Shown here: positions 7,113 through 61,568 of the stretch, piece by piece
Numbering within the stretch: position 1 is the first letter of the stretch
How the letters are laid out: the number at the start of each line of letters is the position of its first letter
Assembly (NCBI GenBank): GCA_963755695.1
Contig: CAVWLB010000010.1
Span: 1,002,952-1,066,951, forward strand
DNA length: 64,000 bases
Origin: an uncultured Acidobacteriota bacterium
GTDB taxonomy: Bacteria > Acidobacteriota > Vicinamibacteria > Vicinamibacterales > 2-12-FULL-66-21
Direction: 5' to 3'
Made by a program: the position numbers and the translations under genes
Notes under the pieces: generated by a model
What the model saw: only the letters and a program-made list of their open reading frames with translations
What the model was told of the DNA's origin: nothing
The model's database searches: none

Positions 7113-7781
7113 GTGTCCATTTCTGACCTTTTGAAATTCGGCGGCAAGCGGCCAAACCAGAGCACCGGCGCGGGCAACGACGTGTCGGCTGCCACGGGCG
7201 CCGATTCGACCGTGGTGTCGAAGGCGCTGCCGAAGTTCATTGCCGCGCTCTCGAGCACCCAGTCGCCGATGCTCATTGATTTCGGTCCGGTCATCGGTCC
7301 GAATGTCGCGTTCTTCGGCGAGACGCTCGGGTGCAAGCTGTTCATCGAGGATCTCGCCAAGGATCTCGAGCGGCACACACGCGCCGGCACCCGCGAAGAG
7401 TTGCCGGACTTGTTCGCCAAACGCTTCTCACAAGCGGACGGAAGCGTCGACGGCGTGCTCTGCTGGGATATCTTCGATTTTCTCGAACGTCCCGCCGCGC
7501 AGGCGCTCGCCAAGGAAGTCGTGCGGGTGCTGAAGCCGGGTGGTGTCGCCATGGGGTTCTTCTGCAGCTCGATGGTGGGCGTTCCCCCTCAATCGCCATT
7601 CACGAAATTCGAGATCGTCGAAGACACGACCTTGCGCCAGCGCTCTCACCCGGGCGCCAGCGGACCGAAGTTCGTACTGCAGAACCGCGACATCATCAGG
7701 ATGTTCGAGGGGCTGTCGGTCGCCGACTCGTTCCTTCTGAAGAGCAACACCCGGGAAATGCTGCTGCGCAAGCGGGCGTAA
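7113..7781 (+). CDS. class I SAM-dependent methyltransferase
   Basis: LIDFGPVIGPN (motif I-like), VDGVLCWDIFDFLE and VLKPGGVAMGFF. GTG start. Confidence 0.7.
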   Translation: MSISDLLKFGGKRPNQSTGAGNDVSAATGADSTVVSKALPKFIAALSSTQSPMLIDFGPVIGPNVAFFGETLGCKLFIEDLAKDLERHTRAGTREELPDLFAKRFSQADGSVDGVLCWDIFDFLERPAAQALAKEVVRVLKPGGVAMGFFCSSMVGVPPQSPFTKFEIVEDTTLRQRSHPGASGPKFVLQNRDIIRMFEGLSVADSFLLKSNTREMLLRKRA

Positions 7782-7782
7782 C

Positions 7783-8571: not shown

Positions 8572-8579
8572 AACCTCAC

Positions 8580-8784
8580 AATCGAAGAGTCGAAGGACGA
8601 GCGAAGGGTTCGAGGGAACGCCGGAACTCGTTTCTAATCGAAGGGCGAACCTCGAAGGTCGAAGCGTCGAAGGTTGAAGCAGCCGAGAGCGTCAATTCGG
8701 TCCGAACCCGTCGAGCGATTCAGGGCAAACACCTGATCGGGTCTCCTTCGATTCCTTGGGTCCTCCTTCGATTCCTTCGATTTT
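8580..8784. repeat. intergenic word-repeat/hairpin array (TCGAAGG on the left, CCTTCGA on the right)
   Basis: At least seven tcgaag-type words at 8582-8675 and three ccttcgatt words at 8745-8784, so the two halves are reverse complements. Confidence 0.8.
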
Positions 8785-8839
8785 CAAAAGCGCCCTCTCA
8801 TGAAAGAATAGCGGTTTCTATCTTTCAGAGGACGGCTTC

Positions 8840-10042
8840 ATGCTTGATTTCGATCTCACTGAGGAACACCGGATCCTCGAACAAACGGTTCGCGAGTGGG
8901 GCGCCCGCGAGGTGGCCCCGAAGATTCACGATCTGGATCGCGAGCATCGTTTCGATCGCAACTACCTCAAACACATGGCGGACATGGGTCTGCTCGGCTG
9001 CTCGGTGCCGCAGGAATACGGCGGCGCGGGAATGGACTACATCAGCCTCGGCCTCGTGAGTGAGGAACTGGAGTACCTCGACACGTCACTCCGCGTGATC
9101 ATGTCGGTGCACGCCGGGCTCAACTGCCTGACGCTGCTCACGTGGGGGACGGAAGACCAGAAGAGGCGGTATCTGGTCCCGCAGGCTCAAGGTAAGAAGA
9201 TTGCAACCTACGGGTTGACTGAGCCTGCTGCGGGCAGCGATGTTCGAGGGATCCAGACCACCGCCGTCAAGAAGGGGGATCGCTATTTCCTCACCGGCGA
9301 GAAGATGTGGATTTCGCTGGCGGACGTGGCCGACAACTTCCTGGTGTTCGCCTGGACGGATGCCGAGAAGAAGAAGCAGAAAGATCCCTCGGGGATCAGC
9401 GCCTTCATCATCGAACGGGAGTTCAAGGGATTCTCGAGCGGCACGCTGAAAGAGAAGTGGGGAATCCTCGCCGGCAACACCGGCTTCTTCAAGATGGACG
9501 AGGTCGACGTGCCGGAGGCCAATCTGGTTGGGCGTCCTGGTGAGGGTTTCAAGATCGCGATGTTTGCCCTCGACCAGGGACGGTACACCGTTGCCGCCGG
9601 GGCGACGGGGTTGGTCCGCGCGTGCCGCGACGCCAGTGTGAAATACGCCAAGGAGCGCAAGACCTTCGGCGTCGAGATCGGCCAGCACCAGTTGGTGAAG
9701 GAAATGATCGCGCAGATGGAATCGGACTATCAGGCCGCCCGGTTGTTGTGGATGCGTGCCGGAGTTCTGAAGAACGCGGGCCGCCGCAATACACGCGAGA
9801 CCGGCCTGGCGAAGTGGTTCTCGACGGTGGCATCCGAGCGCGCCGCCGGGGATTGCGTGCAGGTGCACGGCGCCAATGGCTATTCCGATGAATATCCGGC
9901 CGGCCGCTTCTATCGCAACTGCAAGGGCGCGGTGATCTACGAAGGAACGCGCGAGATTCACAAGGTCATGCAGGCGGACTACGTGCTGGGCTATCGGCAA
10001 GACAAGCCCACGCGGTGTGAATTGCCGCCCCATCGATCGTGA
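8840..10042 (+). CDS. acyl-CoA dehydrogenase
   Basis: [58 protein letters not shown]. 400 aa. Confidence 0.9.
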
Positions 10043-40939: not shown

Positions 40940-43666
40940 TCAGTCCAGCAGCCGCCTCCCCAGGAGCGGCTCGCCGCCACGGGAGATGTAGAACCCGTAG
41001 CAGGCCAGCACCGCCGGGATCATCATCAGGAGCAGCGAGTCCCAGAAAAACCATTTCGACGCGTCGAACGTGACAATCGCGTTCGAGATGATGAAGTTGA
41101 CCAGGAACAACACCATCGCCGCCAGCAGTCCCAGGTGTTGAATCGTGAGGACGATGATCGTGATGAAGACGACCAGGGTGATGAGAACCAGCCAGACCGG
41201 TCCCGAGTCGATCATCCCGCGAGCCGACGTGAACGTCATCAACGCGACCGCAAGGGCCCCCGCGACGAGTTCCCGGCGGACCAGAATCTTCAGAAAGACC
41301 ATCCCGAACACCGAGAAGAGCGCATTTAGTACCGCGTTGAACACCTGGTTCAGGACGCGCGCGATGACGATATGAGTCCCGAGCAGTTCGCCCAGGTCGG
41401 GAAAGTCAGGGGTCAGGGCGTACCCGAACGCGTGCACCGTCAGGAGATGGGCGAGATAGATCACGTGGACGGTGATACCGAGCGCGACCGCGAACAGGAT
41501 GTCGCGGCCCACGAGCGGATCCCGCCACTGCCGCGCCATCAGGCGCGACCACGAGACGACCGTCGTCGGCCAGAATCGACGGACGTACGGTTCGATTGCC
41601 AGGTAGAGGAGCCACAGCATCCCTGCCGCCCACAGGGGCTGACCGCTGAAAAAGCGGCCCATCTCGATGTCGGGATTGGCGACGTGCTTGCTGTCGAGGA
41701 GCCAGACGCCGAATGCGACGATCGACACGAAGGTGGCGAGCTGCAGCGCACCACGCCGATCGCCGCGTCCCTTCCGCAGATTGTGACGGGCGACGAGCGC
41801 GGCGGCCACGAACAACGAAAACACCGCCAGGGTGCCAAGCGCGGACCAGATCGAGACGGGGCGATCTCCGGTGACCTCGGCGAGCCGGGTGGCGCGTGTC
41901 CATGGGGCAATCTGTTGAAAGGCGACTGCCCGTCCGTGGTACGCCGCCGCCTCGATGCGAAGCGGCTGATCCTTCAGGCCCGACAGCGGACCCGTCCACG
42001 CGGCGCGGGCGTCCGCGTAGACCCTCGGCGTCCATTGAGGCACCGCCGGTGAGAAGCTCGCGTAATCAAGCCCGGCAGCACGGAAGAGCGGCGTCCAGTC
42101 AACCGTCGCCGGTTTGGATTCGGGATCCACCTGCGCCGGCACGACGGCGAGTTCGAGCAGTCGGCCGTCCGGATCAAGTTTCACCAGCGTCATCCCCGAC
42201 AGCGATAACGGCGGATCGGTCAGGGTCACGCGCGGCTTGTCGCCGGTTGGAATCAGGATGGACGGACTGCCGCGCCACCAGAACTGAAGCAGCCTCGGCG
42301 TTCCGGTGCTCAGGTGCTCGCGAGTTGCGAGTTCAGGATGATTGCGCAGGTACTCCATCGCGCCGTCAGGGACGTTGAATCCGTGTGCCGAATCAACGGC
42401 ATCGGCTGCGTAGCCGAGCGATCCGAGAATCTCTTTCGCCCGCTCGGCCAGCAGCAGCGGCGGCTTGGGCAGCGGTATCACGTTGGTCAGCAGCACTCGA
42501 TCCGCCAGTGCAACACAGAGGGCCAGAACGCCAAGCGTCGCGGCGAGGGCGGCCACGGCCGCGACTGGTTGCAAGGCGCTCGACTCTCCGGCAGCGGCGA
42601 CCATTTCAGGTGACGGGGTTTCACCCGCGGCGAGCGCGGCGGCCAGCGGATCACCTCCGGGCAGCGCGGCGGCCACTGCCAGGGCGGACGAGGGACGCCT
42701 GGCCGGGTCGGGTTCCAGGCATCGCATGATCGCGCGTTCAATTGCCGGATCGAGATCCCGGACGAACTCCGAAGGACGGGTGATGCCTGCCTGCTCGCGC
42801 TTGGCGATCAGCTCGGCGAGGTTATTTCCCTCCAGCGCGCGGTGTCCCGTGAACAACTCGAACAGCACCAGGCCGAGCGCATAGAGGTCGCTCCTGGGCG
42901 TGACCTCTCCGCCCGCGAGTTGCTCCGGCGACATGTACGCGGGCGTCCCCGCTCGCAGCGACTCCCCGGCCGCGCCGGCCAGACCGAAGTCGGTGACGCG
43001 AATGGTGCCGTTGCCGTCGAGCATGATGTTGGCCGGCTTCAGATCCCGATGCACGACGCCGCGATCGTGCGCGGCGGCGAGGCCGGCACAGATCTGACGC
43101 GCAAGCTCCATCGCGCGATCCTGCGGGAAGCGGCCAATGCGTCGAATGAGCGACGCGAGATCCTCGCCGTCCACGTACTCCATCGAGAGAAACGTGTGCC
43201 CCTCGTACTCCGCCACGTCGTACACGCGGCAGACGTTGGGGTGGGAGACCTGACGCGCCATCCGCACTTCCATGTGGAGCTGCGTGAGACGTGCCGGGTC
43301 CTTGTCGACGGCTTCGGGCAGGAATTTCAGGGCGACCGGCTGTCCGAGCTTCAGGTCGTCTGCACGGAATACCTCGCCCATCCCGCCGCGGCCGAGCCGG
43401 CCGACGATCCGGTAGCGTCCCTCGAGGAGCGCTCCCGGCGCGAACCGCCCGTGATCGATCGCGTCGGTGCTAGTGAGCCACGCTGTCGAGGAGCTTCGAC
43501 TTGCGCCGGTCGGGGATCCGATCTCGTGATTTCCGCTTGCTGCCGATCGCGATGCTGCATCGGCGAGCGTGGTCTCGTCAGAAGACCACGACAGCGGGGT
43601 CAAACATCTCGGACAGAGTGATGTCGACCCGGGTAGTTCGATGGAGCAGGCAGGACAGGCAGGCAT
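40940..43666 (-). CDS. zinc-ribbon Ser/Thr protein kinase with extracytoplasmic domain and polytopic membrane C-terminus
   Basis: CPAC...CPRC N-terminus. Hanks kinase (GRGGMGEVF, HRDLKPANIM, DFG, GTPAYMSPE). Pro/Ala linker, TM, a soluble region of about 190 aa, then about 7-8 TM segments. Confidence 0.88.
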   Translation of the reverse strand: MPACPACSIELPGSTSLCPRCLTPLSWSSDETTLADAASRSAASGNHEIGSPTGASRSSSTAWLTSTDAIDHGRFAPGALLEGRYRIVGRLGRGGMGEVFRADDLKLGQPVALKFLPEAVDKDPARLTQLHMEVRMARQVSHPNVCRVYDVAEYEGHTFLSMEYVDGEDLASLIRRIGRFPQDRAMELARQICAGLAAAHDRGVVHRDLKPANIMLDGNGTIRVTDFGLAGAAGESLRAGTPAYMSPEQLAGGEVTPRSDLYALGLVLFELFTGHRALEGNNLAELIAKREQAGITRPSEFVRDLDPAIERAIMRCLEPDPARRPSSALAVAAALPGGDPLAAALAAGETPSPEMVAAAGESSALQPVAAVAALAATLGVLALCVALADRVLLTNVIPLPKPPLLLAERAKEILGSLGYAADAVDSAHGFNVPDGAMEYLRNHPELATREHLSTGTPRLLQFWWRGSPSILIPTGDKPRVTLTDPPLSLSGMTLVKLDPDGRLLELAVVPAQVDPESKPATVDWTPLFRAAGLDYASFSPAVPQWTPRVYADARAAWTGPLSGLKDQPLRIEAAAYHGRAVAFQQIAPWTRATRLAEVTGDRPVSIWSALGTLAVFSLFVAAALVARHNLRKGRGDRRGALQLATFVSIVAFGVWLLDSKHVANPDIEMGRFFSGQPLWAAGMLWLLYLAIEPYVRRFWPTTVVSWSRLMARQWRDPLVGRDILFAVALGITVHVIYLAHLLTVHAFGYALTPDFPDLGELLGTHIVIARVLNQVFNAVLNALFSVFGMVFLKILVRRELVAGALAVALMTFTSARGMIDSGPVWLVLITLVVFITIIVLTIQHLGLLAAMVLFLVNFIISNAIVTFDASKWFFWDSLLLMMIPAVLACYGFYISRGGEPLLGRRLLD

Positions 43667-43672
43667 ATAAGA

Positions 43673-46426
43673 TCAGGCTGTGCGCGGCGCCGTGGGCTGA
43701 GCCGCGCCGGATGCGACGTAGCAACCGAACATTCCGGCGGCGACGATTGCGCCAATGAAGACGAGACTGGTCGGACCCCGCCACGACGAGACATCCGTCG
43801 TCAGCGGCGCACCCATGAGAATGAGATGCGCGCTGAGCGTCGCGATCGTCGCAAGCAGGCCGATCCACGCGACGACGGCCACGAAAATCGTGACCATCAC
43901 GATCGCCATCGCAACGTCGAGTATCGGCGTGTCGCCAGGAAACATTCCGTTCAGCACGACCGGCGTGTAGCAGGCGAGTGCGGCCAGCGCCGCAACCCAT
44001 GTCCGTTTCGCGAGGATCCGGAACGCGACGAAGCCGGCCATCCCCAGCATCCCGTCCGTGATCGCCGCCTGCGTGCGATCGAGGACCGCGGCGAAGGAGT
44101 GGTGGAATGCCATGAATACCGACGGGTCCGAGATCAAGGGCGGTGGTCCCGGTCGTCCGGCGATGACCGGGACAACGTTGTGCAGGGCGTAAGCGAGAGT
44201 CATGGCGAGACCCGCCGAGATACCGATAACGATGTCGCGGCCCACGTGGGGATCGCGCCAGCCGCCGCCGAGCAACCGCGTCCACCCGATCAGGCTCGAA
44301 GGAGAGAACCGCCGCACGTAGGGCTCCAGTCCGAGATACGTGACCCAGAGCAGGCCGGCATTGAACAATCCCTCGCCGATCGCGCCGAAAAAGCGGCGGA
44401 TCTCGCTGTTGACCGCGCTGACGTGACGATCCCCGAGCAGCCACGCGATCATGAGAATGCAGAAGACCGCCGTCGCCGCTCGGTACGCACCGGCGCGGTC
44501 GCCGCGTCCGAGGCGCAGGTTCCTCCGCGCCAGCGCCACTGCACACAGCATCAATCCCGGCATGATGAACGACGTCAGCAGGCCGGTCGCCCGCTCTAGC
44601 CAGGACGTGGCACCGGCGGATGGCATGCGGGACGAACGGGTCCAGGGACCCGTGATACCGAAGAACACGGGCTTCCCGGCGTAGCCTGCAGCCTCCACGC
44701 GCACCGTCAGATCCGGACGCTCAGGGAGACGGCCCTCCCACGCCATGCGCTCGTCGGCATACACGGTCGGAAGCCATCGGGGGGCCACCGGCGTGAAGCC
44801 GGTCATCGAGAGACCTGCCGCATCGAACAGCGTCGACCAGTTGGTATGCGCGGCGTGCGGCGGGTTGGTCTCGATCGGCTGCGGCACGGCCGCGAACTCG
44901 CTGAGCCTGCCGTTGGGATCGACGATGACGAGCGTCATGCCGCTCGTGGTCAGCGGCGGATTGAGAGCGTCGGTGCGATTCTCGTCTCCGAACGGAATCA
45001 GCGGTCTCGGGCTTGTCCGGTACCACAGGACGTGGGTTTCCGGACGCGGCGTTTCGAGTTCCTTCCACCGATCGGGTGACGTGTTGTTGGCTGCAATGTA
45101 CCGCACCCAGTCGAGTGAAGTGGTCAACCCCGCCGCGGAGTAGGACCCCTGATCGCCGTACCCGAGCTTCTGCGCGATCTCCTGTGCGCGATCGATCAAC
45201 GCCACCGGCGGTCTCGTCAGCGGTGCGCGGTTGATCAGCATTACGCGCTGATAGAGTGCGAGCAGGACGATCGACGAGAGGGTAATCCATGCAATCGCCG
45301 CAGCCAGCTTGGCTGTGGACAGGGCTTCGGTCGTCGATGCGGCGGCGGCAACCATCTCCGGCGATGGGGTCTCGCCCGCGGCCAGCGCCGCGGCAATCGG
45401 ATCACCACCCGGCAATGCGGCGGTGACCGCCAGTGCCGAGCGGGGACGCCGCGCGGGATCCGGATCCAGGCAACGGAAGATGACGTCCTCGATCGCGGGA
45501 TCGAGATCGTGGACGATCGTCGTTGGCGGCGTGATGCCCGCTTGCTCGCGCTTGGCGATGAGCTCAGCCAGGTTCGAGCCCTCGAGCGCCCGTTGTCCGG
45601 TGAACAGTTCGTAGAGCACGAGTCCCACCGAGTAGATGTCGCTACGCGGCGTAACCGCGGCGCCCGAAAGTTGTTCGGGCGCCATGTACGCGGGCGTGCC
45701 CGCGCGCAGGACTTCACCAGTGGCTCCCGCGAGACCGAAGTCGGTGATCCGGATCCGGCCGTTGGCGTCGAGCATGATATTGGCCGGTTTCAGATCGCGA
45801 TGGACGACCCCGCGGTCGTGTGCCGCGGCCAGGCCGGCGCAAATCTGCCGCGACAGCTCGATCGCGCGGTCCTGTGGAAACCGGCCGATGCGGCGGAGCA
45901 GCAGCGCAAGATCCTCGCCGTCCACGTACTCCATCGACAGAAACGTGTGTCCCTCGAACTCGCCGACGTCGTAGACGCGACACACGTTGGGATGCGAGAC
46001 CTGCCGCGCCATGCGCACTTCGGCGTGCAGTTGCGTCAGGCGGGCGGGATCTCGGTCGACGTCATCGGCAAGAAATTTCAGAGCGACCGCCTGCCCGAGC
46101 CGTAAATCGTCGGCGCGATAGATCTCGCCCATTCCGCCGCGGCCGATGCGGCCGACGATGCGATAGCGTCCATCCAGGAGCGCGCCTGGCTCGAATTTGC
46201 CGTGATCGATCGCGTCGGTCCCGGCGGGCCAACTGGTGCTGGGAGAGGTGATCGGCTTTCGCTGCTGTGCCAGTCGGGAGCCCGGGCTCATCGCCCGCGC
46301 GACCTTCTCCTTCGACACGTCTGCCAAGCGGGTCACGTCCGCATGCCACGGGATGTCCGTCTCGCACGCGGGGCACGTCGTGATGGTTTCGTCGATTGGC
46401 AGGCCGCACGACGGGCAGCGGGGCAC
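43673..46426 (-). CDS. paralogous zinc-ribbon Ser/Thr protein kinase, same architecture
   Basis: CPSC...CPAC. The kinase domain is nearly colinear with the neighbour. It shares the NLRxGRGDRxGA, EPYVRRF and WRDPxVGRDI motifs in the membrane domain. Confidence 0.88.
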   Translation of the reverse strand: MPRCPSCGLPIDETITTCPACETDIPWHADVTRLADVSKEKVARAMSPGSRLAQQRKPITSPSTSWPAGTDAIDHGKFEPGALLDGRYRIVGRIGRGGMGEIYRADDLRLGQAVALKFLADDVDRDPARLTQLHAEVRMARQVSHPNVCRVYDVGEFEGHTFLSMEYVDGEDLALLLRRIGRFPQDRAIELSRQICAGLAAAHDRGVVHRDLKPANIMLDANGRIRITDFGLAGATGEVLRAGTPAYMAPEQLSGAAVTPRSDIYSVGLVLYELFTGQRALEGSNLAELIAKREQAGITPPTTIVHDLDPAIEDVIFRCLDPDPARRPRSALAVTAALPGGDPIAAALAAGETPSPEMVAAAASTTEALSTAKLAAAIAWITLSSIVLLALYQRVMLINRAPLTRPPVALIDRAQEIAQKLGYGDQGSYSAAGLTTSLDWVRYIAANNTSPDRWKELETPRPETHVLWYRTSPRPLIPFGDENRTDALNPPLTTSGMTLVIVDPNGRLSEFAAVPQPIETNPPHAAHTNWSTLFDAAGLSMTGFTPVAPRWLPTVYADERMAWEGRLPERPDLTVRVEAAGYAGKPVFFGITGPWTRSSRMPSAGATSWLERATGLLTSFIMPGLMLCAVALARRNLRLGRGDRAGAYRAATAVFCILMIAWLLGDRHVSAVNSEIRRFFGAIGEGLFNAGLLWVTYLGLEPYVRRFSPSSLIGWTRLLGGGWRDPHVGRDIVIGISAGLAMTLAYALHNVVPVIAGRPGPPPLISDPSVFMAFHHSFAAVLDRTQAAITDGMLGMAGFVAFRILAKRTWVAALAALACYTPVVLNGMFPGDTPILDVAMAIVMVTIFVAVVAWIGLLATIATLSAHLILMGAPLTTDVSSWRGPTSLVFIGAIVAAGMFGCYVASGAAQPTAPRTA

Positions 46427-49846: not shown

Positions 49847-51709
49847 TCAATTTTCCTTGGGTTTCTCAGCCTGGCGGATGACCAAGACTTCCACTGGACC
49901 TTGCTTCGGCTCCAGTCGCAAGCCGAGTTGTGTCTCGAGCGCCTTCAGCAGCGCAGGCGAAATCGGTGATGGAACTGCCGCTGCCGCGGAAGACGCGTTC
50001 GACACAGCAGGGGAGTCAGGTGTGTATTCGAGGTGGACATCAAATGCCCCTTCGAGTCCCGTCCGATCGCGGACCACGCGATTCAGTTTTCCCTCGTCCG
50101 AAAGCACACCAGCCAGTTGGGTCATCGTGATCTTCTTACCGGCCAGAAGACCCGGCGCATTCTGTGTGAGGCCGCACACTCGCTCGAGGTAGTGCTCTGG
50201 AGGTGGACTTGGACTTGTGGACAGGTCCACGCAATCCGCCGCAGACGGGCGGAGCCCTGCTCCCAGCTTGCGGTCGGTGTTCGCAAGAACGAGGTCAGCG
50301 AAGGGGAACTCCTTTGTTTGGCGAGACAGCTGGAGCCCGAACCGCTCTCCGACCAGCGTTTGCAGCATCGCCTTTACGCGGGGATGCCAACTCGCGCCAA
50401 AGGTCATGTCGCTGGGGACCTGAGCGTCGATATCGAAACGGTCGGCGTCGATCCACGCCGGGCCGCCGACGATCTGGTATGACAACAACGGAAACGCGGA
50501 GCCGTATGCGATGCGGATGAGATCCTTGAGCGTCAGCCCGCCCGCGGTGAACCGACCACTGATCAAGGGCGGGATGCCCGGTGGTTTGCCAGGCGTATGC
50601 GGCGTTACGGAAGCCTGCACGAACGAGGGAGCGGCATCGTGTTGTTCCGGTGCCTGGATCGCCGCGCCTGCGCCAGCATCGGACATGGCTTTCAGTGGCG
50701 AAATACAGACGGCGAGCGCCACGGCGAGGCCTACGGTCACGCCGCCAGACAGCACTCCGATGCGACCTCTGGCCTGATTCGCGTCGAGAACGGCGGCCAC
50801 TCGAGCCTTCAGGTCGCCGCGATTGGCCATCGACAGCACCGGCGCAGGAGCGCGTCTCGACAGCCTTCGGGCGAGCGCGACCAGTTGCTCGGCATACCCG
50901 ATCCCCTCGGCTGAGCGGACCACGGCGTCGTCGCACGCCCGCTCGGACTCCAGGCAGAAGTGACGCCACGCGATCCAGACCAACGGGTGGAACCAATACA
51001 ACGAACAGACGACCCGTGCCATCACGTGCACGGGCCAGTCGCCGCGGCGCACGTGTTCGAGCTCGTGGACCAGCGCCCGGCGGACTTCGGCGTCCGTCCA
51101 CTCCTGCGCATCCCCGGGCATCACGATCGCGGGCCGCACCAATCCATACGTGAACGGAACCGCGAGATCTTCATGAACGAGCAAGTCCACGTGACGGCTG
51201 AGACCAGCCTCTCGAGAGAGGTTGCGCACCAGCGTTTCGCGCTTCAGCCACCGCCGCGAACTGCCTCGCATGCGACGGAGGCGACGAAGCGTCTCGATCA
51301 CGGGGGCCATGAAGAGCAGGGCTCCTGTGGCCCATCCCGTGATCAGCAGCAGCCGTACTGGTACACGCGTGCGATTCGCTACGGAGTTCGCGGAGCGATC
51401 GGTTCGAGCCGCAACCGGGTGCTCGTTGCGAACCGAGGCGGTTGCAGCCGAGAGGTTCTGGGGCTCAGGCTGGACTGCAACGGACCCAACGTCCAGCGCG
51501 ACAGGCGGCATTGACACCACCGCTATCGGCAGAATCATCAAGGTGCCGAACGTTGAGGCAAGTATCACCGACCGAACCGACGCGGAAACCCGCCGCAACA
51601 TGCGCAGCGCGACCAGGGCGAGCACGAGGATCGACGTGGCTTTCGCGAGAATCGACAGTTCAGCCGAACCGCCGATCGCCAGCATGATTTCGGTCGGGAT
51701 CTCGCTCAT
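49847..51709 (-). CDS. BlaR1/MecR1-like M56 peptidase fused to a TIGR03435-type C-terminal domain
   Basis: N-terminal TM helices with ALVHELEHVRRGDW (HExxH). The C-terminal half PSFVQASVTPH...LKDLIRIAYG...YQIVGGPAWIDADRFDI...LEPKQGPVEVLVI matches the Solibacter-type TIGR03435 domain as I recall it. Confidence 0.82.
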   Translation of the reverse strand: MSEIPTEIMLAIGGSAELSILAKATSILVLALVALRMLRRVSASVRSVILASTFGTLMILPIAVVSMPPVALDVGSVAVQPEPQNLSAATASVRNEHPVAARTDRSANSVANRTRVPVRLLLITGWATGALLFMAPVIETLRRLRRMRGSSRRWLKRETLVRNLSREAGLSRHVDLLVHEDLAVPFTYGLVRPAIVMPGDAQEWTDAEVRRALVHELEHVRRGDWPVHVMARVVCSLYWFHPLVWIAWRHFCLESERACDDAVVRSAEGIGYAEQLVALARRLSRRAPAPVLSMANRGDLKARVAAVLDANQARGRIGVLSGGVTVGLAVALAVCISPLKAMSDAGAGAAIQAPEQHDAAPSFVQASVTPHTPGKPPGIPPLISGRFTAGGLTLKDLIRIAYGSAFPLLSYQIVGGPAWIDADRFDIDAQVPSDMTFGASWHPRVKAMLQTLVGERFGLQLSRQTKEFPFADLVLANTDRKLGAGLRPSAADCVDLSTSPSPPPEHYLERVCGLTQNAPGLLAGKKITMTQLAGVLSDEGKLNRVVRDRTGLEGAFDVHLEYTPDSPAVSNASSAAAAVPSPISPALLKALETQLGLRLEPKQGPVEVLVIRQAEKPKEN

Positions 51710-52192: not shown

Positions 52193-54928
52193 TCAGGCGG
52201 CAGAGCCTTCGCGGACCGTCTGCCGGGCCTCCAGATCAGCGAGCGATTTCCGCGCGGCCTCGCAGAGCGCCTCGGCATCGCGGAAGTTTCTGAGTCCAGC
52301 CGCAACCGACAACACGCTGTGAAAGCCGAGGGCGCGGTAGCTTTCGAACCGCGCCTCGTCGAAGAACTGGTTGCCTGTCGAGTCGTGGGGGAAGGTGGGG
52401 TCGATCAGCGCGAAATTCTTCACGTCGACCGGTTCGTCTCCCGACAGCGTCGCCTTGAAATAGAGGATCGTTCCATCGGGGGTCTCAGGACCGTCCACGA
52501 CGCTATAGCGAATCTTCCCGATCGCGGCATGTGGATTCGCACGTCCCTGGCCGGCGCGCGTGACATGGATCGGCGGGAATTGGATCGGGATGCCGAGGTC
52601 GAGCCGGATCCGCCGCACGGCGTTCGCCAGATCGTCGAAGGAGTACTCCGGATCGCAGCCGGCGTCGGAGACGATGATGAACCGGCAGCGGCGCGCGACC
52701 ATTTCCCAGAGGCCGAGATTCTCGTAGTGCCCGCCGTCCGAGAGATAGACGTACGGATTGTCATCGGTCGTCAGGCCCAGCAACTCCCGCAGGACCGGCC
52801 CGACGCCGAGAGGCGGTTCGCTGGTGCTCCATGCATGGTCCTTTTTAGTGTTGCCGAACCAGACGCCGAGCCGCGCGTTGGCCAGCGTCAGCAGGAAGGC
52901 GCGGGCCTTCGTCGAATACATGCCCATCTCGGGGCTCGCCGCCGCTCCCGATATCGCCAGCGCCATTCCCAGCGACACGCCGGTCCCTCTCGCCCCGCGA
53001 TCGGATCCGTATTCAGCCGCGGGACGGTAACCAAGGTGGTGGTTTCCAACGTGCAGCGGCGAAAAAGTGAAGGATTGGGCTTTGGTCTCGTGGCGGCCGA
53101 CGTGCGTTGACGACACGGCGTTCAGCGTGGTGTTGATGACGTGCAGCGGCCGCACGTCCGCGAGGTGATGGACCAGCAGATCGTCCTTCGAGTCGAAGCC
53201 GGTGAACTGGTTGGGATGCCGATTGCGCCGCGAGGCGCCGAGGAAGGTTCGAATCAGCCGTTGCTGATACATGCCGTGCAACGAGAAGCGATTCACCGGC
53301 ACGAACCAGCTCATGATCAAGCCGAAGGCCGCGAGACTCGCTGCCAGCAACACGTTCTCGCCGAGACCGGCTCCAGTTGCGTGGCAAGGCAAGCCTGCTC
53401 CCGGCGAGCACCGCGTCGTCGCATTGAGCCAGTGGTACTCGATTGACTCGGTTATCCGAAGATTGCCCCACGCGATCGCCGAGAGCAGGACGAAGATGAT
53501 CGCGGGAAGCGCCAGCCGCTGTGCGGCAACCCGCCACCCGGAAGGGCGGCCTGGTCCGTTCGAGCGCGTCGCCAGCCCCGCCAGGGAGCTGAGAAGCGGC
53601 ACCAGCGTGGCCACGGCCGCCGAGGAAACTTTCCGATCCATCGACAGCATCCGTTCCATGGCATTGACGCCGGTTTCAATCACGCTCGCCATGTAGAACA
53701 CGACGAGGCCGGCCGCCATCCAGAGCGTGGCGGCGATGGCGATCCATGCCGCGGCCCTGCTCCACCACTCGAGCACGGCGTCGTCAAGTTCGCTGCTGGC
53801 GAGACCGATGAACACCGTCATCTGGGTCAGAACCAGCGCAAGCACGATCGGCACCGCGAAGATGGCGTACAGCTCGCGCATCGCGTCTCCCGCGCCGAAG
53901 CCGTAGTCGAAGCTTCCGAACCACCACATGCCCGCTCCGAGAATCGGGCCAGCCGCCAATGCCGCGGCAACGATGCCGGGGCCGACTCTCACGCGCAGCA
54001 CGCTGCCGTCATTTACGCTCATCCGCCTCCAGACCCGTGGTGCCACCGCCCCGAGCAGGATCCATCCGGCCGCTGGAATCACGGATGAAAGCAGCAGCGA
54101 GTTCCGAAGACTAATCGCACACGGGTATGCCGACCAGAAGAACGTCATCGCGATCGCGCCGGCCAGCGATGGAACGAGGAACCATCCGAGGAATCGCATC
54201 TGCGACCAGGATCCGCCGAATCCCACGAGGTTCAGGACGAGATAGCCGGTGCCGACGGCGAACGCGACCAGCGCGACGAGGAACGACACCGATGCCGAGT
54301 CGCCCGGCACGGCGCAGGGCCCGGCGACGAATCCGTGTTCGACGAGGTGCACGCCCGAGTAGTAGAGCCGCGGCACCATCAACGCCGCGGCGAGCAGTGG
54401 CAGGATGACGAGCCAGTTGAGCGCCAGGTTCCTGGCCATTGTCATGATCAACGCCCAGACGTCGGCGGACACGAGCCCGCCGCGCGGCGCCAGATAACGG
54501 CAGGTGCGGCGCACTCGTTCGACGGGCGAGGCGTCGGACACGTCGCCGCACGACGTTTGGCGTTGTGGCTGGCCGGGATCGAGCGTGGCGAATACGCCGC
54601 GGCGACCGTTCGAGCCTTCGCGGTGCAGCCACGCGGTCAGCCATCCACCGATGTAGCCGCCTCCCGAGACGGTCGAAAGATAGTCGATGGAGCCGAGAAC
54701 GCCGACGTGAGCGAGGCCCTGGAGCACGCCAAGCGCAAAGGTGGCGCTCCGTATCCCGCCGCCCGACAGGCAGACGGCGCTCGGACCGCGCTCGTGAATG
54801 CGGCCGACAATCGCGCGCAGGCGTATATCACGATCGTCTGGCGTGGTGTCAGCGACTGGCGGCTCGCCGTAGAGGGCGCGATACTCGTCGGCCAACACCT
54901 CGTGCCACAGGAGCGGAGGGCTCGTCAC
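52193..54928 (-). CDS. patatin/cPLA2-like lipase whose catalytic halves are separated by a polytopic membrane region
   Basis: CLSGGGIRSA oxyanion motif and STVSGGGY nucleophile elbow near residues 55-90. SDGGHYENLG Asp motif near residue 731. Many hydrophobic helices in between. GTG start. Confidence 0.8.
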   Translation of the reverse strand: MTSPPLLWHEVLADEYRALYGEPPVADTTPDDRDIRLRAIVGRIHERGPSAVCLSGGGIRSATFALGVLQGLAHVGVLGSIDYLSTVSGGGYIGGWLTAWLHREGSNGRRGVFATLDPGQPQRQTSCGDVSDASPVERVRRTCRYLAPRGGLVSADVWALIMTMARNLALNWLVILPLLAAALMVPRLYYSGVHLVEHGFVAGPCAVPGDSASVSFLVALVAFAVGTGYLVLNLVGFGGSWSQMRFLGWFLVPSLAGAIAMTFFWSAYPCAISLRNSLLLSSVIPAAGWILLGAVAPRVWRRMSVNDGSVLRVRVGPGIVAAALAAGPILGAGMWWFGSFDYGFGAGDAMRELYAIFAVPIVLALVLTQMTVFIGLASSELDDAVLEWWSRAAAWIAIAATLWMAAGLVVFYMASVIETGVNAMERMLSMDRKVSSAAVATLVPLLSSLAGLATRSNGPGRPSGWRVAAQRLALPAIIFVLLSAIAWGNLRITESIEYHWLNATTRCSPGAGLPCHATGAGLGENVLLAASLAAFGLIMSWFVPVNRFSLHGMYQQRLIRTFLGASRRNRHPNQFTGFDSKDDLLVHHLADVRPLHVINTTLNAVSSTHVGRHETKAQSFTFSPLHVGNHHLGYRPAAEYGSDRGARGTGVSLGMALAISGAAASPEMGMYSTKARAFLLTLANARLGVWFGNTKKDHAWSTSEPPLGVGPVLRELLGLTTDDNPYVYLSDGGHYENLGLWEMVARRCRFIIVSDAGCDPEYSFDDLANAVRRIRLDLGIPIQFPPIHVTRAGQGRANPHAAIGKIRYSVVDGPETPDGTILYFKATLSGDEPVDVKNFALIDPTFPHDSTGNQFFDEARFESYRALGFHSVLSVAAGLRNFRDAEALCEAARKSLADLEARQTVREGSAA

Positions 54929-54975: not shown

Positions 54976-57900
54976 ATGGAAGCTCGCACGCTTGGCCACT
55001 ATCGCCTCGACGCGCGCATCGGTGAAGGCGGCATGGGCGAAGTATTCCGCGCGTTTGACACGCGGCTGAAACGTCCGGTTGCCGTCAAATTGATGCGCCC
55101 CGACCGACATCTCGGATCGGTCGAAGGCTTCCTTCGCGAGGCGCGCGCGGCATCGGCGCTAAATCATCCCAACATCGTGATCATTCATGAAGTCGGCGAG
55201 ACGCCGACCGGCGATCACTTTCTCGTCCAGGAATTCATCGATGGGCGAACGCTGCGATCGGTGCTGGGCGAGCGACCGCCGCTGGAGATGCTGGTCGAGA
55301 TCGGACTGCAGGTCGCGCGGGCCCTCGCCGCTGCGCATGCGGCCGGCATCGTCCATCGAGACGTGAAGCCCGAGAACATCATGATCCGCCACGACGGGTT
55401 CGTGAAGGTCCTGGACTTCGGTCTGGCACGGAGGACGGAACAAGCGGATGCGGAAGTGACGACGCAAACCGCGAGAACCACGTTGCGGGGCACGCTGGCT
55501 GGAACCCCGGCGTATATCGCTCCCGAACAAGCAACTGGCGCCGCTGCTGGCCCCGCGGCTGACGTCTTCGCGCTTGGCGTCGGTACTGTACGAGATGGCG
55601 GCGGGGCAGCGCCCGTTCACGGCGGCGACCTCCGCCGGGATCATCGCCAGCATTCTCACCGACGAGCCCGTGCCGCTGACGCGGCTGAAGCCGGACATTC
55701 CGCGCGCGTTCGACGATCTCGTGCAGCAGATGTTGCGGAAGGAGCCGGATCGTCGTCCCACCGCGCTCGAAGTTGTACGGGAGCTGACGGCTTCGCAGCC
55801 CGGATTGGACGCGGCGGTGCCGCGCGTCCCGATCGTGCGCACGACGGTGGGTCGCGAAGCCCAGCGCGCCCACCTGCTGCGCGCATTTTCCCAGGTCAAG
55901 GAAGGGGCCGGCCGGATCGTGGCGTTGACCGGCGAGCCAGGAATCGGCAAGACCAGCCTGGTCGAAGATTTCTTGGGCGAGCTCACGGCGGGGGGCGAAC
56001 GCCCGACCATCGCTCGCGGACGCTGCTCGGAGAGTCTCGCCGGATCCGAAGCCTACCTTCCGATTCTGGAGATACTCGACGGCCTGCTGCACCGTCCGGA
56101 CGGGCGCTCGTTGACCACCCTCGTCAAGACCGTCGCTCCGACCTGGTACCTGCAGGTCGCGACCCCCTCGGTCGATGAGGGCTCGCTTGGAGAGTTGCGC
56201 GAGACGTCGCCGGCCGCATCGCCGGAGCGGATGAAGCGGGAACTGGGGGCGCTCCTTCAGGAGATCTCCCGCGCCCGGCCGGTCGTCCTGTTCATCGACG
56301 ACCTGCACTGGGCCGACGTGTCGACGGTCGACATCCTCAACTACCTCGCGGGACGTTTCACCGACATGCGCGTGCTCGTCATTACGAGCTACCGGCAGTC
56401 GGAGATGGCCCTGTCGAAGCATCCCTTCCTCGCTGTTCGGAACGACCTGCAGATGCGCGGCCTGTTTCAGGAGATTCCGCTGGGGTTTCTCCAGCCTCGC
56501 GACGTGGAGCAGTACCTGGCATTGCAGTTCCCCGGTCACGCTTTCCCGAAAGACTTTGCCGCGGCAATCCACGCAAAGACCGAGGGAAGCCCGTTGTTCA
56601 TGGCCGATCTCGTGCGCTATCTGCGCGACACGGGCGGCATCGTCGAAGAGGGCGGCACCTGGGTGCTGGCGCGCTCGATGCCCGACGTCCCGCGCGATCT
56701 CCCGGCATCGGTGCGAGGCATGATCGCGCGGAAGATCGACCGACTCGAAGAGGAGGATCGACGGCTGCTGCTCGCTGCCAGCGTGCAGGGAAGCGAGTTC
56801 GATTCTGCGATCCTCGTCGAGGCGCTGCAGATGGACGGGGCCGAAGTGGAGGATCGTCTCGAGACGCTGGAGCGCGTGCACGTGTTCCTCGAGCGCGGAG
56901 AGGAGCAGGAGTTCCCCGACGGCACGCTGACGCTGCGGTACCGGTTCGTCCACGTGCTCTACCAGAACGTGCTGTTCGCCTCGCTCCAACCGACCCGTCG
57001 GGTGTCGTTGGCCAAGGCGATCGTCCGGTCGCTCGCGTCGCACTACGGCGCCGACACAGCTGCGGTAGCGCCCCGGCTCGCCGTGCTCTACGAGACGGCC
57101 CGGGAGTTCGCATCGAGCGCGAAATTCTTCTTCATCGCGGCCACTCGCGCCGTCGCGCTGTTTGGCTTCCGCGAGGCGCTCTCGCTCGCAGAGCGAGGTC
57201 TCAATGGTTTGCGCACGATGCCCGATGAAGCCGAGCGGCAGCAACTCGAGCTCGGACTGCAGATGATTCGCGGTCTTGCGCTGCGCTCGGTGAAAGGATG
57301 GGCATCGCCGGAGCTCGAAGCGACCTTCGCGCGCGCGCGGCAGTTGTGCCAACTGCTGGAGAATCCGCCCGAGCTTTTCCCCGTTCTGTGGAACGTGACT
57401 TTTTTCAACATGATTCGGGGGGATCTCGCGCTGGTTCGCGAGCAAACGCCGACGCTCATGCGGCAGGCCGAGCAGGCGCACACGCCGGCCTATCTCATGG
57501 CCGTCTGCCACGTGGCAGGGGTCACGGCGGAGTTCACGGGGGACTTCGTCGAATCGAATCACCTGCTCGAGCGCGCCCGTGAACTGCACGACCCGGCGGA
57601 ACACGCGGCCTATACCGCCATGTTCGGGATCGATCCCGGCATGGTCGCTCGGGCGATGTCCAGCCGTCCTCTCTGGGCGCTCGGTTACCCGGATCAAGCG
57701 ATTGCGCGGAGTCGCGAGACGATCGCGCTCGGGCAATCGCAGCGCCAGCCAGTGACGCTGGTCTTCGCGCTGGTTGTCGCGCAGGGGATTCTTCTCTATC
57801 GCGGCGAGCTGGCCGCTGCCGTCAAGCTCGGCGACGAGATCATCGCGCTCTGCCGCGAGTACGAATTTCCACAGGAAGCCGAGTGGGCGCGGGGTTTTCA

Positions 57901-58393
57901 GGCTTCCGCCGTGGCGCGTCAAGGAAGGATCGAACAAGGCGTCGCCCAGCTCGGCGGCAGCCTGGCCGCGCTGCAGGCGCTCGGTTCGGGCCTGACGCGG
58001 ACGATGTTCTTGACCCTGTTTGGTGAGGCATTGCGGATCGCGGGCCGCGTCGACGATGGGCTTGCCGCGATCGAGGACGGCTTCGCGCACGCCGAGCGCA
58101 CGATCGAGCGCGGTTTCGTCGCCGAGCTTCATCGCGTCAAGGGAGAGCTGTTGCTGGTTGCCGGCAAGCCGACGGCCGCAGAAGAGAGTCTCCGCACCGC
58201 GCTGACGATCGCACGAGAGCAGCACGCGCGTGCGTTCGAGTTGCGCGCCGCCATCGCGCTCGCGCGTCTGCTGCAGCCGAAGTCCCGCGCCGAGGCGCGG
58301 GACATGCTGCAGCCTGTTTACCATTGGTTCACTGAAGGACACGACACGGCGGACCTGGCCGCGGCGCGGACGCTGCTGTCCGAGATCGGTTGA
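54976..58393 (+). CDS. Ser/Thr kinase - AAA/STAND ATPase - TPR protein (PknK-like), frame broken once near 55582
   Basis: Kinase motifs GEGGMGEVF, HRDVKPENIM, DFG and GTPAYIAPE. ...ADVFALGV then shifts frame to VLYEMAAGQRPF. Walker A GEPGIGKTS, Walker B VVLFIDDLHWAD, and a long TPR-like C-terminus. Confidence 0.82.
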
Positions 58394-58401
58394 GCGGATT
58401 G

Positions 58402-61400
58402 ATGGATTTCGAGCGAAAGCTTCCGACTGAGCAACAGGACATCGCCGACATCGTCGCCGGCATTCTCGCCGTGCAGACGCGATTCGCGGGCCGGCAGAAG
58501 CGGCCGCTGGGGCGCGGCACGCACACCAAGGGTGTCTGCGTGCGCGCGACCTTCGAAGTGTTCGACCTCGCGAAGACGATCGACGATGCGACGCTGGCCC
58601 GGCGTCTGGCGCGCGGCCTGTTCGCGAAACCTGGCGTGTATCCGGCAACCGCCCGGTTCGCGAACGCGGCGTCGACGTTCCGCCCGACTCGGACCCGGAC
58701 GTGCGCGCTCTGTCGTTCGCCGTGCAGGTCCCTGCCGGCGTCGTCGACGCGCAACCGGTGCGTTTCGATTTTTCGATGAACAACGCGCCGACCTTCCCGA
58801 TCAACGACGCGCACGCATTCGCGGCGTTCATGCGGGTGCAGGCGGCCAGCAGTCCCTTGGGGCAGTTGCGCAGGCTCCTGTCGCTGCCGTTTCGCGACTT
58901 GAAGGGCTTCTTCGCCACTGCGGCAAATGGACTGCGCCAGGAGCACACCGCGCTCAAGCCGTACCAGGTAACGCGCTACTGGAGCAACGTCCCGTTCCTC
59001 CACGGTGAGGATGAAGCGATCAAGTACTCGGCGGGGCCGCTTTCCGGCAATACAGGCCAGCCGCTGGCGAAGGGACAGAACGTGCTGCGCGATGAACTCG
59101 CGCGTCACGTGGCCGAGGACTCGCCAGCGGTGTTCGATTTCGCCCTGCAGTTGCTCGATGCGTCGAGGATGACCTTCAAGGGGCAAAGCAAGGAGCCGAG
59201 CTTCTGGATCGAGAACGCGAGCGTCGAGTGGCCTGAGGAACAGGCGCCGTTCCACGTCGTCGGCCGGTTGACGCTTCAAGCCGGGGCGCTCGTGCCGGAA
59301 GACGAGTGCCAGGCGATGTTCATCGACGTCACCAAGTACTCGCTGCCGCAGCACCGGCCGCTCGGCAGCATCAATCGTGCACGGCGGGTCGCCGAGTCGG
59401 CGAGCCGTAAGGCACGCCTCGGAGCCGCGCCGATCGTGATACCGGCCACGCCGCCGTCGCTCGCCCAACGGCTCGGGGCAATCACAATCGGATCGATCGC
59501 AAAAGCGGTCGGAGCCGCGGCCCTCCTCGCCGGACTACTCGTGTTGTTTCTCGCTGTCGTGCTCATCGTCCGGACGAACCGCGGCGACGGCATGTTGCCG
59601 CCTGAACGGGTGGAGCGGGTCATCTACCCCGATCAGGGATGGGGGCCTGGTCTCGAGTCGCAGACGCGGCAAACCTACTACTACACGGCGCAAGGGGCGG
59701 TCCTGAAAGACGTGCGCTACAGCTGGTTTCGCGCACTCGAGATGCCGTGGTCGAAGCGAAAGCTGTCGGACCCCGAGATCATGCGCCGTTACGGATTCCT
59801 GGTGGACCCAGCGACGCCAGCCAACCCGCACGGCTTACCAGTCGGCTTCACCAAGCACTACGACCAGGGCTTGAATGAAGAGCTGCTGGACATCACGTGC
59901 GCCGCCTGCCATACGGGACAGATCAACGTCACGCGCAACGGGCGAACCACGGCGCTCAGGATCGACGGCGGGTCGGCGCTGCACGCCTTCACCAATTCCG
60001 ACGTCGGCCACTTCGTGCCGACGCTGGCCGCGTCGCTCGTCGGAACGGTGGCCAATCCGTTCAAGTTCAATCGCTTCGCCAACGCCGTCCTCGGCGAAGG
60101 GCACCGCGGCGGACGCTGGGAGCTGCGCGCGCAAATGTTGAACGTCGCCGGTCAGTTCGGCAGGCTGGCCTGGAACGAGAAGGTGCACCGCCTGGTGCCG
60201 ACCGAAGAAGGTTACGGCCGCACCGACGCACTGGCGCGGATCGCGAACACCGTGTTCGGCGATCACATCGAGGCGCGCAACTACGCCGTGGCCAACGCTC
60301 CGGTGAATTACCCGCCCGTCTGGAACATCTGGAAGTTCGACTGGGTGCAGTACAACGCATCGGTCAGCCAGCCGATGGCGCGAAACATCGGCGAGACCAT
60401 GGGCACCGGCGCGAAGTATGCGCTGATGGATCGCTACGGACGGCCGCTGCCTCCGGATGAGCGGTACCGTTCCTCTACGATGCTCGAGAACCTCTACACG
60501 ATCGAGCAGACGATTCGCACGCTGCAGCCGCCGCAGTGGAACGAGGAGGTCCTTGGCCCGATCGATCGGGCGAAGGCCGCGCGCGGAAAGCAGCTCTTCG
60601 ATCAGCACTGCGTCGCCTGCCATGGGCCGCATATCGCGCCGCCGGCAATCAAGCTGCGCAACGCACCGGGGAAGGGTCCGAACGACCCCGAATGGCTCGT
60701 GAAGACGTTGTGTGTCGATGACATCGGCACCGATCCCAACACCGCCCTCAACTTCTACGACGCGCGCGTCGATCTCACGAGGACGGGCCTGACGGCCGAG
60801 GACCTTCGCAATGTGGCGCGGAAGGAGTACACGCTCTGGAACCAGCGTCAGGCGGATTACTTGAACAAGGAGATCACACGAGCGTCAAAGGCTCCGAACT
60901 CGAGCACCTACGTCGCGAGCCTGCAGAAGGAGCTCTCCGGGCTGAACGCTGGCATGGAGCAGGAGCTGTCAGAGATCAACCCGGCGTCGATGAGCGTCGG
61001 GGCAGGTCTCAGCTACCTCGGTATGATGATTCGAGAGAAGGCCTACGCCGAACGCCATTACACGGACGCGCAGCGCGCGGACTACGATGGTTTCGGCATA
61101 CTCGACATGCCGCAGGTGCTGCCATCCTACAAGCCGCGGCCGCTGGCCGGCATCTGGGCGTCGCCCCCGTTCCTGCACAACGGATCGGTGCCGACGATCT
61201 ACGATCTGCTGTCCCCGGTCAGCGAGCGGCCGAGGACGTTTCTAGTCGGGAGCCGCGAGTATGACCCGCAGAAGCTGGGCCTCGCACGGCCATCCGGGCG
61301 CTACTGGACGTTCGACACCTCGAAGGATGGAAACCACAATACCGGTCACGAGTTCAACACCGGTTACAAACCATGGAAGGACGGCGACCCGCCCGCGCAC

Positions 61401-61568
61401 GGTCTGATCGGGCCGCTGCTCACGCCCGACGAGCGGCTCGCGATCATCGAGCACCTGAAGGTTCGCAACGACGATGTCGATGGGCCGCAGGAACCCCACG
61501 TTCCGTTGCCGAGCGGGTGCACACCACCGCCGCGCCGGGCTGACGCGTCAAAGCGCCTGGTGTGGTAA
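58402..61568 (+). CDS. fusion protein: catalase-like (y4iL-type) domain + TM helix + di-haem cytochrome c (CCP/MauG/RoxA-like) domain; frame broken once near 58680
   Basis: N-terminus PLGRGTHTKGVCVRATFEV, DSDPDVRALSFAV, RFDFSMNNAPTFPI and HRPLGSINRARRV resemble the catalase core. TM at about 59472-59570. CAACH at 59898-59912 and CVACH at 60609-60623. PPFLHNGSVPT near the C-terminus. Confidence 0.7.

Follow-up and report, generated by a model that had tools for sequence, protein, structure and literature searches.

What kind of protein is encoded at positions 58402 to 61568 (+ strand) of the window studied here, and is it the product of one gene or of two? The window, by which we mean the whole stretch of 64,000 nucleotides that was analysed, derives from contig CAVWLB010000010.1 of an uncultured Acidobacteriota bacterium (assembly GCA_963755695.1, positions 1,002,952 to 1,066,951). 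A sequence-only reading of this DNA had joined two open reading frames (ORFs) across a single-base break near 58680 and had described an unusual fusion of a cytoplasmic catalase-like domain, one transmembrane (TM) helix and a periplasmic di-haem cytochrome c domain. We found that the fusion protein is encoded by a real single gene, the two ORFs of the window being one broken reading frame, and that both halves of the protein belong to known superfamilies. The gene is part of a conserved three-gene module that comprises the haem fusion, a membrane patatin-like lipase and a STAND kinase. Its product may be a membrane-tethered haem enzyme of lipid-hydroperoxide or oxylipin metabolism, a reading to which we assign a probability of roughly 0.4.

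The reading frame and its break

The fusion gene is distributed over two frames in the present assembly:

58402..58686, + strand: codons 1-95 in the first frame, with the distal motif R38-G39-T40-H41 at 58513-58524
58686..58687, + strand: single-base break; a G is missing, so that CCG GAC is read as CCGAC, with a -1 shift at codon 96 (Asp)
58687..61568, + strand: codons 96-1055 and the stop codon in the second frame

The two ORFs (58390..58779 and 58701..61568, both on the + strand) lie in frames that differ by -1. In homologues the junction reads RFANAASTFRPDSDPDVRAL / RFANAASTFRPDSDPDVRALSFAV, with TFRPDSDPDV at this place, and this sequence across the junction indicates that one G is missing between 58686 and 58687, slightly downstream of the position first proposed. 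The repaired gene extends from the ATG at 58402 to the stop codon at 61566-61568 and encodes 1055 aa. The same start codon is found in an intact orthologue, P0271, which comes from another metagenome and falls into the same 90% cluster. P0271 is also 1055 aa long and differs from the repaired product by 15 substitutions and no gaps (98.6% identity); it lies on a 73-kb metagenome contig whose gene order is that of the window. Moreover, more than 100 homologues of 1045-1090 aa (54-84% identical) span 97-100% of the fusion protein as single ORFs, and the full-length homologues were retrieved with E = 0, far beyond chance. The single ORF of about 1055 aa that had been proposed is therefore borne out by P0271 and by these homologues. 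Programmed -1 frameshifting was considered as an explanation of the break and is ruled out because every homologue, including P0271, is a plain single ORF.

The kinase gene directly upstream is also broken. It carries an extra G at 55582-55583, where GTCGGTACTG should read GTCGTACTG because homologues have DVFALGVVLYEM, and the break splits the Pkinase profile between two ORFs (profile positions 1-185 in the ORF that starts at 54976, positions 185-259 in the ORF that starts at 55574). On the contig of P0271, which is syntenic with the window, the kinase gene is intact and encodes 1138 aa. Two indels in two neighbouring genes of one operon would be expected if a pair of pseudogenes were decaying here, with true frameshifts in the kinase and fusion genes instead of sequencing errors. 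This explanation gains from a scan of the window for overlapping ORFs and for the G+C content of third codon positions (GC3): the scan, which was not exhaustive, found no other frameshift, and its nine further candidates were separate complete genes (HflX, a TPR protein, a CDP-alcohol transferase, two GT4 glycosyltransferases, CoaBC, UDG, PriA and Amt). It also gains from P0003, a 93%-identical fragment on a JGI contig of 3653 bp, which lacks about 68 residues of the N-terminal domain (roughly aa 120-187, including the distal Asn; sequence VVDAQPFQITRYW); the gap may be genuine, an in-frame deletion, or may have arisen in assembly. Several observations speak against decay. Both indels are changes of a single G (+/-1) within short G runs, and the source contig is 3.2 Mb long. 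No extra stops or decay-type substitutions are present, the 15 differences from P0271 being conservative, and the strain of P0271 keeps both genes intact with the same synteny (compared as proteins). In L001, a related long-contig assembly, the patatin-like orthologue (7175-9890, - strand) is likewise called as two genes of 536 aa and 381 aa, which jointly match the 911-aa window protein, and here too a frameshift in a long-contig metagenome assembly is the probable cause. We therefore regard the frameshifts of the fusion and kinase genes as probable assembly errors and recent pseudogenisation as unlikely.

Promoter and terminator scans gave matches at chance level only. An antisense ORF of 1192 aa (55379..58957, - strand) lies opposite the kinase gene and the first part of the fusion gene. 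With a GC3 of 0.70, whereas the sense genes reach 0.81, it looks more like an artefact of high G+C content than like a gene.

The catalase-like half, the helix and the di-haem half

The repaired protein contains the following features:

58402..59423, + strand: catalase-fold domain, aa 1-341, predicted cytoplasmic (Foldseek, hhalign against KatE, conservation), with the key residues T40-H41, R102 (58704-58706), N127 (58779-58781), R328, E332 (59394-59396) and R339
59487..59579, + strand: single TM helix, aa 363-393, a putative signal anchor (AlphaFold helix, hydropathy, positive-inside bias in 46 homologues)
59658..61460, + strand: di-haem cytochrome c domain, aa 420-1020, NF040606, predicted periplasmic
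59898-59912, + strand: first CxxCH site (CAACH, aa 500-504)
60609-60623, + strand: second CxxCH site (CVACH, aa 737-741)
61128-61241, + strand: PF21419 RoxA-like motif, with H926 at 61176-61178; a further His, H983, lies at 61347-61349

The AlphaFold model of residues 1-341 is confident, with a predicted local distance difference test (pLDDT) around 90. A Foldseek search of the Protein Data Bank (PDB) with this model returned 3e4y as the best match, with 22% identity, E 9e-11 and a TM-score of 0.75 on the target. Dozens of true catalases came next, with E values of about 1e-9 to 1e-8. On the strength of the model, the catalase core fold can be assigned firmly to residues 1-341, in agreement with the catalase-like nature first read from the sequence. 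Entries 3e4w and 3e4y show a 33-kDa catalase-related protein from M. avium subsp. paratuberculosis; at about 300 aa it is reduced to a minimal catalase core and lacks the additional domains that true catalases possess. Whereas 3e4y is soluble and stands alone, the window protein is linked through a TM helix to a di-haem domain and possesses Glu332 in place of the proximal ligand, which in 3e4y we take to be Tyr.

The comparison with E. coli KatE relied on local and sub-region alignments by hhalign, a global alignment of the N-terminal domain having been unsuccessful. H41 was aligned with the distal His128 of KatE, N127 with Asn201 and, in the sub-alignment, E332 with Tyr415. The catalase-like motifs RGTHTKG (R38-G44), MNNAPTF (containing N127) and INRARRVAESAS (containing E332) are present and conserved. 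Residues T40, H41, N127 and E332 are invariant among 68 full-length homologues, and R38, R102 and R339 are invariant or nearly so. H41 is kept in 175 of 179 family sequences, and position 127 is occupied by Asn (115 sequences) or Gln (60). The residue that precedes the distal His is Thr40 here and Val127 in KatE (V127-H128).

A Thr-His pair also occurs in the coral allene oxide synthase cAOS, where T66-H67 is the distal pair and R64, R102 and R360 contact the haem (PMC5617202). Residues R38, T40, H41, R102, N127 and R339 of the window protein correspond to R64, T66, H67, R102, N137 and R360 in cAOS, respectively, and the three arginines match in both position and spacing (PMC5617202). Moreover, R328-x-x-x-E332 followed by R339 mirrors the R-x-x-x-Y...R spacing of the proximal helix, the seven positions from E332 to R339 being equal to those from Y353 to R360 in cAOS (PMC5617202). 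This likeness holds at the residue level and does not amount to sequence-level membership; the proximal ligand of cAOS is Tyr353, whereas the window protein carries Glu there. The coral proteins cAOS-LOX and cHPL-LOX (LOX, lipoxygenase) also have an N-terminal catalase-related domain fused to a lipid dioxygenase-type domain. These eukaryotic proteins pair the catalase-related domain with a lipoxygenase that uses non-haem iron and lies on the same side of the membrane, whereas the partner here is a di-haem c domain.

That the proximal Tyr of catalases is missing had been noticed in the sequence, and the family alignment supports it with a conserved Glu in the same column. Among 157 family sequences, 150 have Glu and 3 have Asp at position 332, and two distant relatives, P0270 and P0228, have Tyr in this column. 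The spacing, the alignment with Tyr415 of KatE, the Tyr of these relatives and the frequency of Glu together indicate that Glu332 replaces the proximal Tyr. The domain may bind haem. P0228 itself, a protein of 1223 aa that may be eukaryotic, contains low-complexity or repeat regions and two tandem Tyr-type catalase-like domains.

The helix at residues 363-393 is modelled by AlphaFold, and the same lone hydrophobic segment was found in 46 fusion ORFs, as expected from the single helix proposed earlier. No N-terminal signal peptide was found in the fusion protein. Averaged over the 46 ORFs, 2.96 Lys + Arg and 0.26 Asp + Glu occur among the 15 residues that precede the helix, and 1.65 of each among the 15 that follow it. 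This charge bias, together with the requirement of c-type haem attachment for the periplasm, supports a predicted topology with the N-terminus inside and the C-terminus outside. The inside-outside arrangement suggested for the two heads is thus supported for the window protein and is the common one; it is not the only solution in the family, as shown below.

The C-terminal part of the protein (aa 395-1055) comprises 661 aa. The NCBIfam model NF040606, named "di-heme-cytochrome C peroxidase", matches residues 420-1020 with 483.2 bits (cut-off 150, E 1.4e-144) over profile positions 3-523 of 524, which places this part among di-haem c proteins as had been proposed. The two CxxCH sites first read from the sequence are 237 residues apart, and C500, C503, H504, C737, C740 and H741 are invariant in 68 homologues; both sites are also invariant in 32 sequences taken from the loci, including members that are only 34-35% identical. 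No experimental basis for the name of NF040606 was found, and the model spans the C-terminal half alone, ignoring the catalase-like domain, the TM helix and the gene neighbourhood.

The segment PPFLHNGSVPT had been likened to the P(Y/F)xHDGS block of cytochrome c peroxidase/MauG and of RoxA-type oxygenases. The segment lies in a match to PF21419 (RoxA-like) at aa 910-947 (59.2 bits, cut-off 26.7, E 2.9e-16), and a profile match to RoxA (4b2n) was obtained at E 3.6e-7. The Pfam scan of the fusion protein gave no match to PF03150 (CCP_MauG) at E <= 1. The window domain shares with the cytochrome c peroxidase/MauG proteins the di-haem c character and the P(Y/F)xH(D/N)GS block, but it is about twice their size. 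With RoxA, RoxB and RoxC (4b2n, PF21419) it shares two CxxCH sites, the motif ...WATxP(Y/F)xHNGSVP... and GNxNxGHxF. In RoxA, we take the second haem to have H641 as its sixth ligand. GNHNTGHEF aligns weakly with GNDNGGHDF of RoxA, which puts the invariant H983 on this H641, a residue singled out in the RoxA haem environment (PMC4496055). RoxA differs in being secreted and soluble, whereas the window protein is a TM-anchored fusion. The CxxCH spacing of 237 is also unlike that of RoxA (199) and near those of PA2077 and PA2078 from P. aeruginosa (245 and 235, respectively; PMC4496055). The latter two, an oleate 10S-dioxygenase and a 7,10-diol synthase also called 'FadCcp', belong to the RoxA branch as periplasmic proteins of about 65 kDa with two haems (PMC4496055) and are likened to the 661-aa C-terminal part by this published description; unlike the window protein they have a signal peptide and no catalase-like domain.

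Architectures, neighbouring genes and spread

By tblastn and ORF parsing, 82 non-duplicate loci were analysed; 60 of them are linked loci and 22 are stand-alone. Linkage of the catalase-like domain to the NF040606 domain takes at least four forms:

Type A: catalase-like domain, TM helix, di-haem domain (46 ORFs)
Type B: TM helix, di-haem domain, TM helix, catalase-like domain (L035, L036, L038, L049; P0125)
P0249: signal peptide, catalase-like domain, di-haem domain, no TM helix
Type C: adjacent genes, the catalase-like protein having a putative signal anchor of RRR plus a hydrophobic stretch (L040, L041, L048, L050)

A signal peptide without a TM helix predicts that both domains of P0249 are periplasmic, and the type C loci likewise appear to have both on that side. 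NF040606 was matched by all four scanned representatives in which the domains are rearranged or the di-haem part is divergent. Of the 60 linked loci, 59 encode the di-haem domain, as do all 34 of those that have at least 9 kb of flank on both sides. The fusion itself occurs in many Acidobacteriota and Gemmatimonadota genomes under the NCBI name 'di-heme-cytochrome C peroxidase', a name which fits only half of the protein.

Two neighbouring genes recur with the fusion gene and lie in the window as follows:

54976..58393, + strand: Ser/Thr kinase with a STAND-type ATPase (Pkinase + AAA_16 + TPR), directly upstream of the fusion gene
52193..54928, - strand: membrane patatin-like phospholipase, 911 aa, divergent from the kinase gene

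The kinase gene ends 8 nt before the fusion gene starts here, and in L002 the two overlap by 4 nt. A Pkinase-AAA_16-TPR gene occurs at 56 of the 60 linked loci and directly precedes the fusion gene in most loci of type A; a gene for a patatin-like membrane protein of about 900 aa occurs at 34 of the 60. Among the 34 fully flanked loci the corresponding counts are 32 and 22. The patatin-like protein possesses a SGGGIRS oxyanion loop (aa 55-61), the putative nucleophile Ser88 (STVSGGG), a long hydrophobic insert and DGG at 731-733; S55-G-G-G-x-R60, S88 and D731-G-G are invariant in 14 orthologues, and S88 is aligned with the GASAG serine of VipD. The Pfam model PF01734 (Patatin), whose domain is split by the membrane insert, did not match the 911-aa protein of the window and matched 8 of the 14 orthologues at E <= 1 (best 5.4e-10), and NCBIfam gave no match to the patatin-like protein. 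Clustering of the neighbour genes revealed no fourth conserved partner, and no lipoxygenase was found in the window flanks or among the conserved neighbour families.

The catalase-like clade extends beyond the fusions. A search of 1.84 billion cluster representatives returned 2678 at E <= 1e-3 and 170 at E <= 1e-30, and relatives were found in 538 species genomes. A stand-alone member from Bradyrhizobium alone retrieves more than 2700 relatives, nearly all of them recorded as 'hypothetical protein' and without a Pfam domain; NCBIfam gave no match to the stand-alone catalase-like proteins. In addition to the cytoplasmic proteins of the 22 stand-alone loci, other stand-alone catalase-like members carry signal peptides or lipoboxes.

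Some further observations concern the flanks of these genes. In one relative (L003/L023, 13214-19793) the fusion gene is directly followed by ccmA/ccmB/ccmC-like genes and by haem-biosynthesis genes (HEM4/TP_methylase, porphobilinogen deaminase and ALAD). Large secreted proteins that share an N-terminal ...QQV(T/N)GT(L/P)GSP.AT... segment are encoded a few kb from stand-alone Glu-type catalase-like genes in Bradyrhizobium and Acidobacteriaceae (L083, 4309-6756 and 15036-17522; L068, 12869-15331; L077, 3557-6250); they look like paralogues and are possibly sulfatase-like. In the window itself, tandem paralogues at 40940..43666 and 43673..46426 (- strand) encode about 910 aa each, with an N-terminal Cys-rich segment, a Ser/Thr kinase-like region and an apparent multi-span C-terminal region as judged from the translations. 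The gene at 49847..51709 (- strand) encodes a BlaR1-like protein of 620 aa and has a small ORF upstream of it; on the syntenic contig the orthologue is annotated with Peptidase_M56 and DUF3738 and is followed by a Penicillinase_R (BlaI-like) repressor of 130 aa.

Candidate functions of the module

The most economical reading, we infer, is a lipid-(hydro)peroxide or oxylipin module, with putative substrates and a putative role for the kinase. The fusion protein would be a bitopic haem protein of the inner membrane, with its catalase-related domain in the cytoplasm, one TM helix and an NF040606/RoxA-like di-haem domain in the periplasm. The patatin-like lipase would free unsaturated or oxidised acyl chains from membrane phospholipid, and the di-haem domain would oxygenate these chains or reduce their peroxides. 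The tethered catalase-related domain could then convert a membrane-permeant fatty-acid hydroperoxide at the inner face, while the STAND kinase might regulate or sense the pathway. Catalase-related AOS, hydroperoxide lyase (HPL) and peroxidase enzymes carry out comparable chemistry on fatty-acid hydroperoxides. RoxA, PA2077 and PA2078 act on isoprenoid or fatty-acid chains and on fatty-acid hydroperoxides, and the two Pseudomonas enzymes, whose substrates are a fatty acid and the corresponding hydroperoxide, carry out the chemistry that we propose for the module (PMC4496055). A lipid-like substrate is supported by the characterised non-canonical members of both superfamilies, which act on lipid chains or hydroperoxides (PMC4496055, PMC5617202). 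Moreover, the catalase-like domain is predicted on either side of the membrane and is, in the linked loci, always tethered or encoded beside a di-haem gene, which suggests that the substrate is membrane-permeant and lipid-like.

A number of points weigh against this assignment. Both genes of the operon are broken in the present assembly. In the N-terminal domain, PF00199 scored 23.4 bits (aa 36-148), below its gathering score of 25, although a precomputed match exists for about a third of the full-length homologues; profile searches of PDB sequences were weak (a catalase at E 0.028, 3e4w at E 0.011). With the proximal Tyr absent, this domain may follow a chemistry unlike that of any catalase-related enzyme characterised so far, and it may even lack haem. 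In addition to the lack of a PF03150 match, the di-haem domain fails the equivalog cut-offs of RoxA, RoxB and RoxC (30.9, 45.2 and 36.7 bits against 1000, 900 and 900), the scores being confined to the motif of about 38 aa. A stand-alone model of the C-terminal domain is confident (pLDDT 82, predicted template modelling score 0.86), yet Foldseek found nothing in the PDB below E = 1.7 and did not list 4b2n, a weak negative as the model is haem-less and loop-rich; the relation to RoxA rests on short motifs. The common architecture places the two catalytic domains on opposite sides of the membrane, so that direct channelling between them is impossible. Finally, the patatin-like gene is missing from 12 of the 34 fully flanked loci, and the 22 stand-alone loci encode a cytoplasmic Glu-type protein without any of the partners (among them Burkholderia sp. 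OK233 and Bradyrhizobium sp. 143).

One rival reading is a two-sided detoxification of peroxide, in which a cytoplasmic H2O2 catalase or peroxidase and a periplasmic cytochrome c peroxidase, fed by periplasmic donors, are merely co-expressed and anchored by the fusion. The full-length match to a model named for such a peroxidase, the catalase fold with its distal His and Asn, and the deposition of the closest structure, 3e4y/3e4w, as a catalase-related protein all point in this direction. The key residues do not: the distal His is preceded by a Thr of the cAOS type and not by Val, and cAOS, which has this Thr-His pair, reportedly does not scavenge H2O2 (PMC5617202). Glu stands in for the proximal Tyr, PF03150 is not matched at E <= 1, and the conserved patatin-like lipase and STAND kinase would be left unexplained. 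We consider this detoxification improbable as the function of the module.

The near-obligate adjacency of the STAND kinase gene, with its 8-nt gap or 4-nt overlap, and the single-pass topology typical of receptors would suit a transmembrane haem sensor. Here the di-haem domain would sense redox state, O2, NO or peroxide and signal through the helix to the catalase-like domain, which would engage the TPR/STAND kinase and thereby control the patatin lipase. Catalytic-type residues are strictly conserved in both domains, however, and the catalase-like clade occurs alone in 22 loci. Moreover, the kinase linkage persists where the catalase-like protein is separate or predicted to be periplasmic (the four type C loci), so that a cytoplasmic output domain is not required. 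A sensor is thus quite improbable.

STAND ATPases and patatin phospholipases are frequent in defence systems, and kinase models of PADLOC, PD-T4-6 among them, match the kinase domain, but a conflict or abortive-infection system, in which the STAND NTPase-kinase would trigger the patatin as a membrane-lytic effector and the haem fusion would add oxidative membrane damage, is very improbable, as the PADLOC matches concern the generic kinase domain only, PADLOC gave no match for the patatin-like or fusion protein, the context is one of housekeeping genes with synteny kept in a second strain and no other conserved neighbour family, and the module is broadly conserved (45-80% identity) in two phyla instead of patchy.

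Full-text searches of the literature found no description of the fusion, of the Tyr-to-Glu clade or of the three-gene module. The earlier impression that no protein with this arrangement had been described thus agrees with the papers found, even though the architecture is common in databases. In these papers, the Tyr-to-Glu catalase-like clade, its repeated linkage to NF040606 domains and the three-gene module are all undescribed. A bolder version of the lipid-peroxide reading, which we put forward as a speculation and think unlikely as it stands, is that the catalase-fold clade with Glu for tyrosinate constitutes a new haem or even non-haem active site. In Acidobacteriota and Gemmatimonadota it would work together with a RoxA-like di-haem oxygenase, a membrane patatin phospholipase and a STAND kinase, and the whole would parallel, in prokaryotes, the cascade in which eukaryotes combine phospholipase A2, a dioxygenase and a hydroperoxide-converting enzyme; oxidised lipids would be produced or removed at both faces of the inner membrane. 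The module is carried by soil phyla that are dominant yet little studied. Should the lipid-peroxide or oxylipin function be correct, the module would represent a new pathway by which bacteria make or repair oxidised membrane lipids, and the catalase fold would have a new axial-ligand chemistry.

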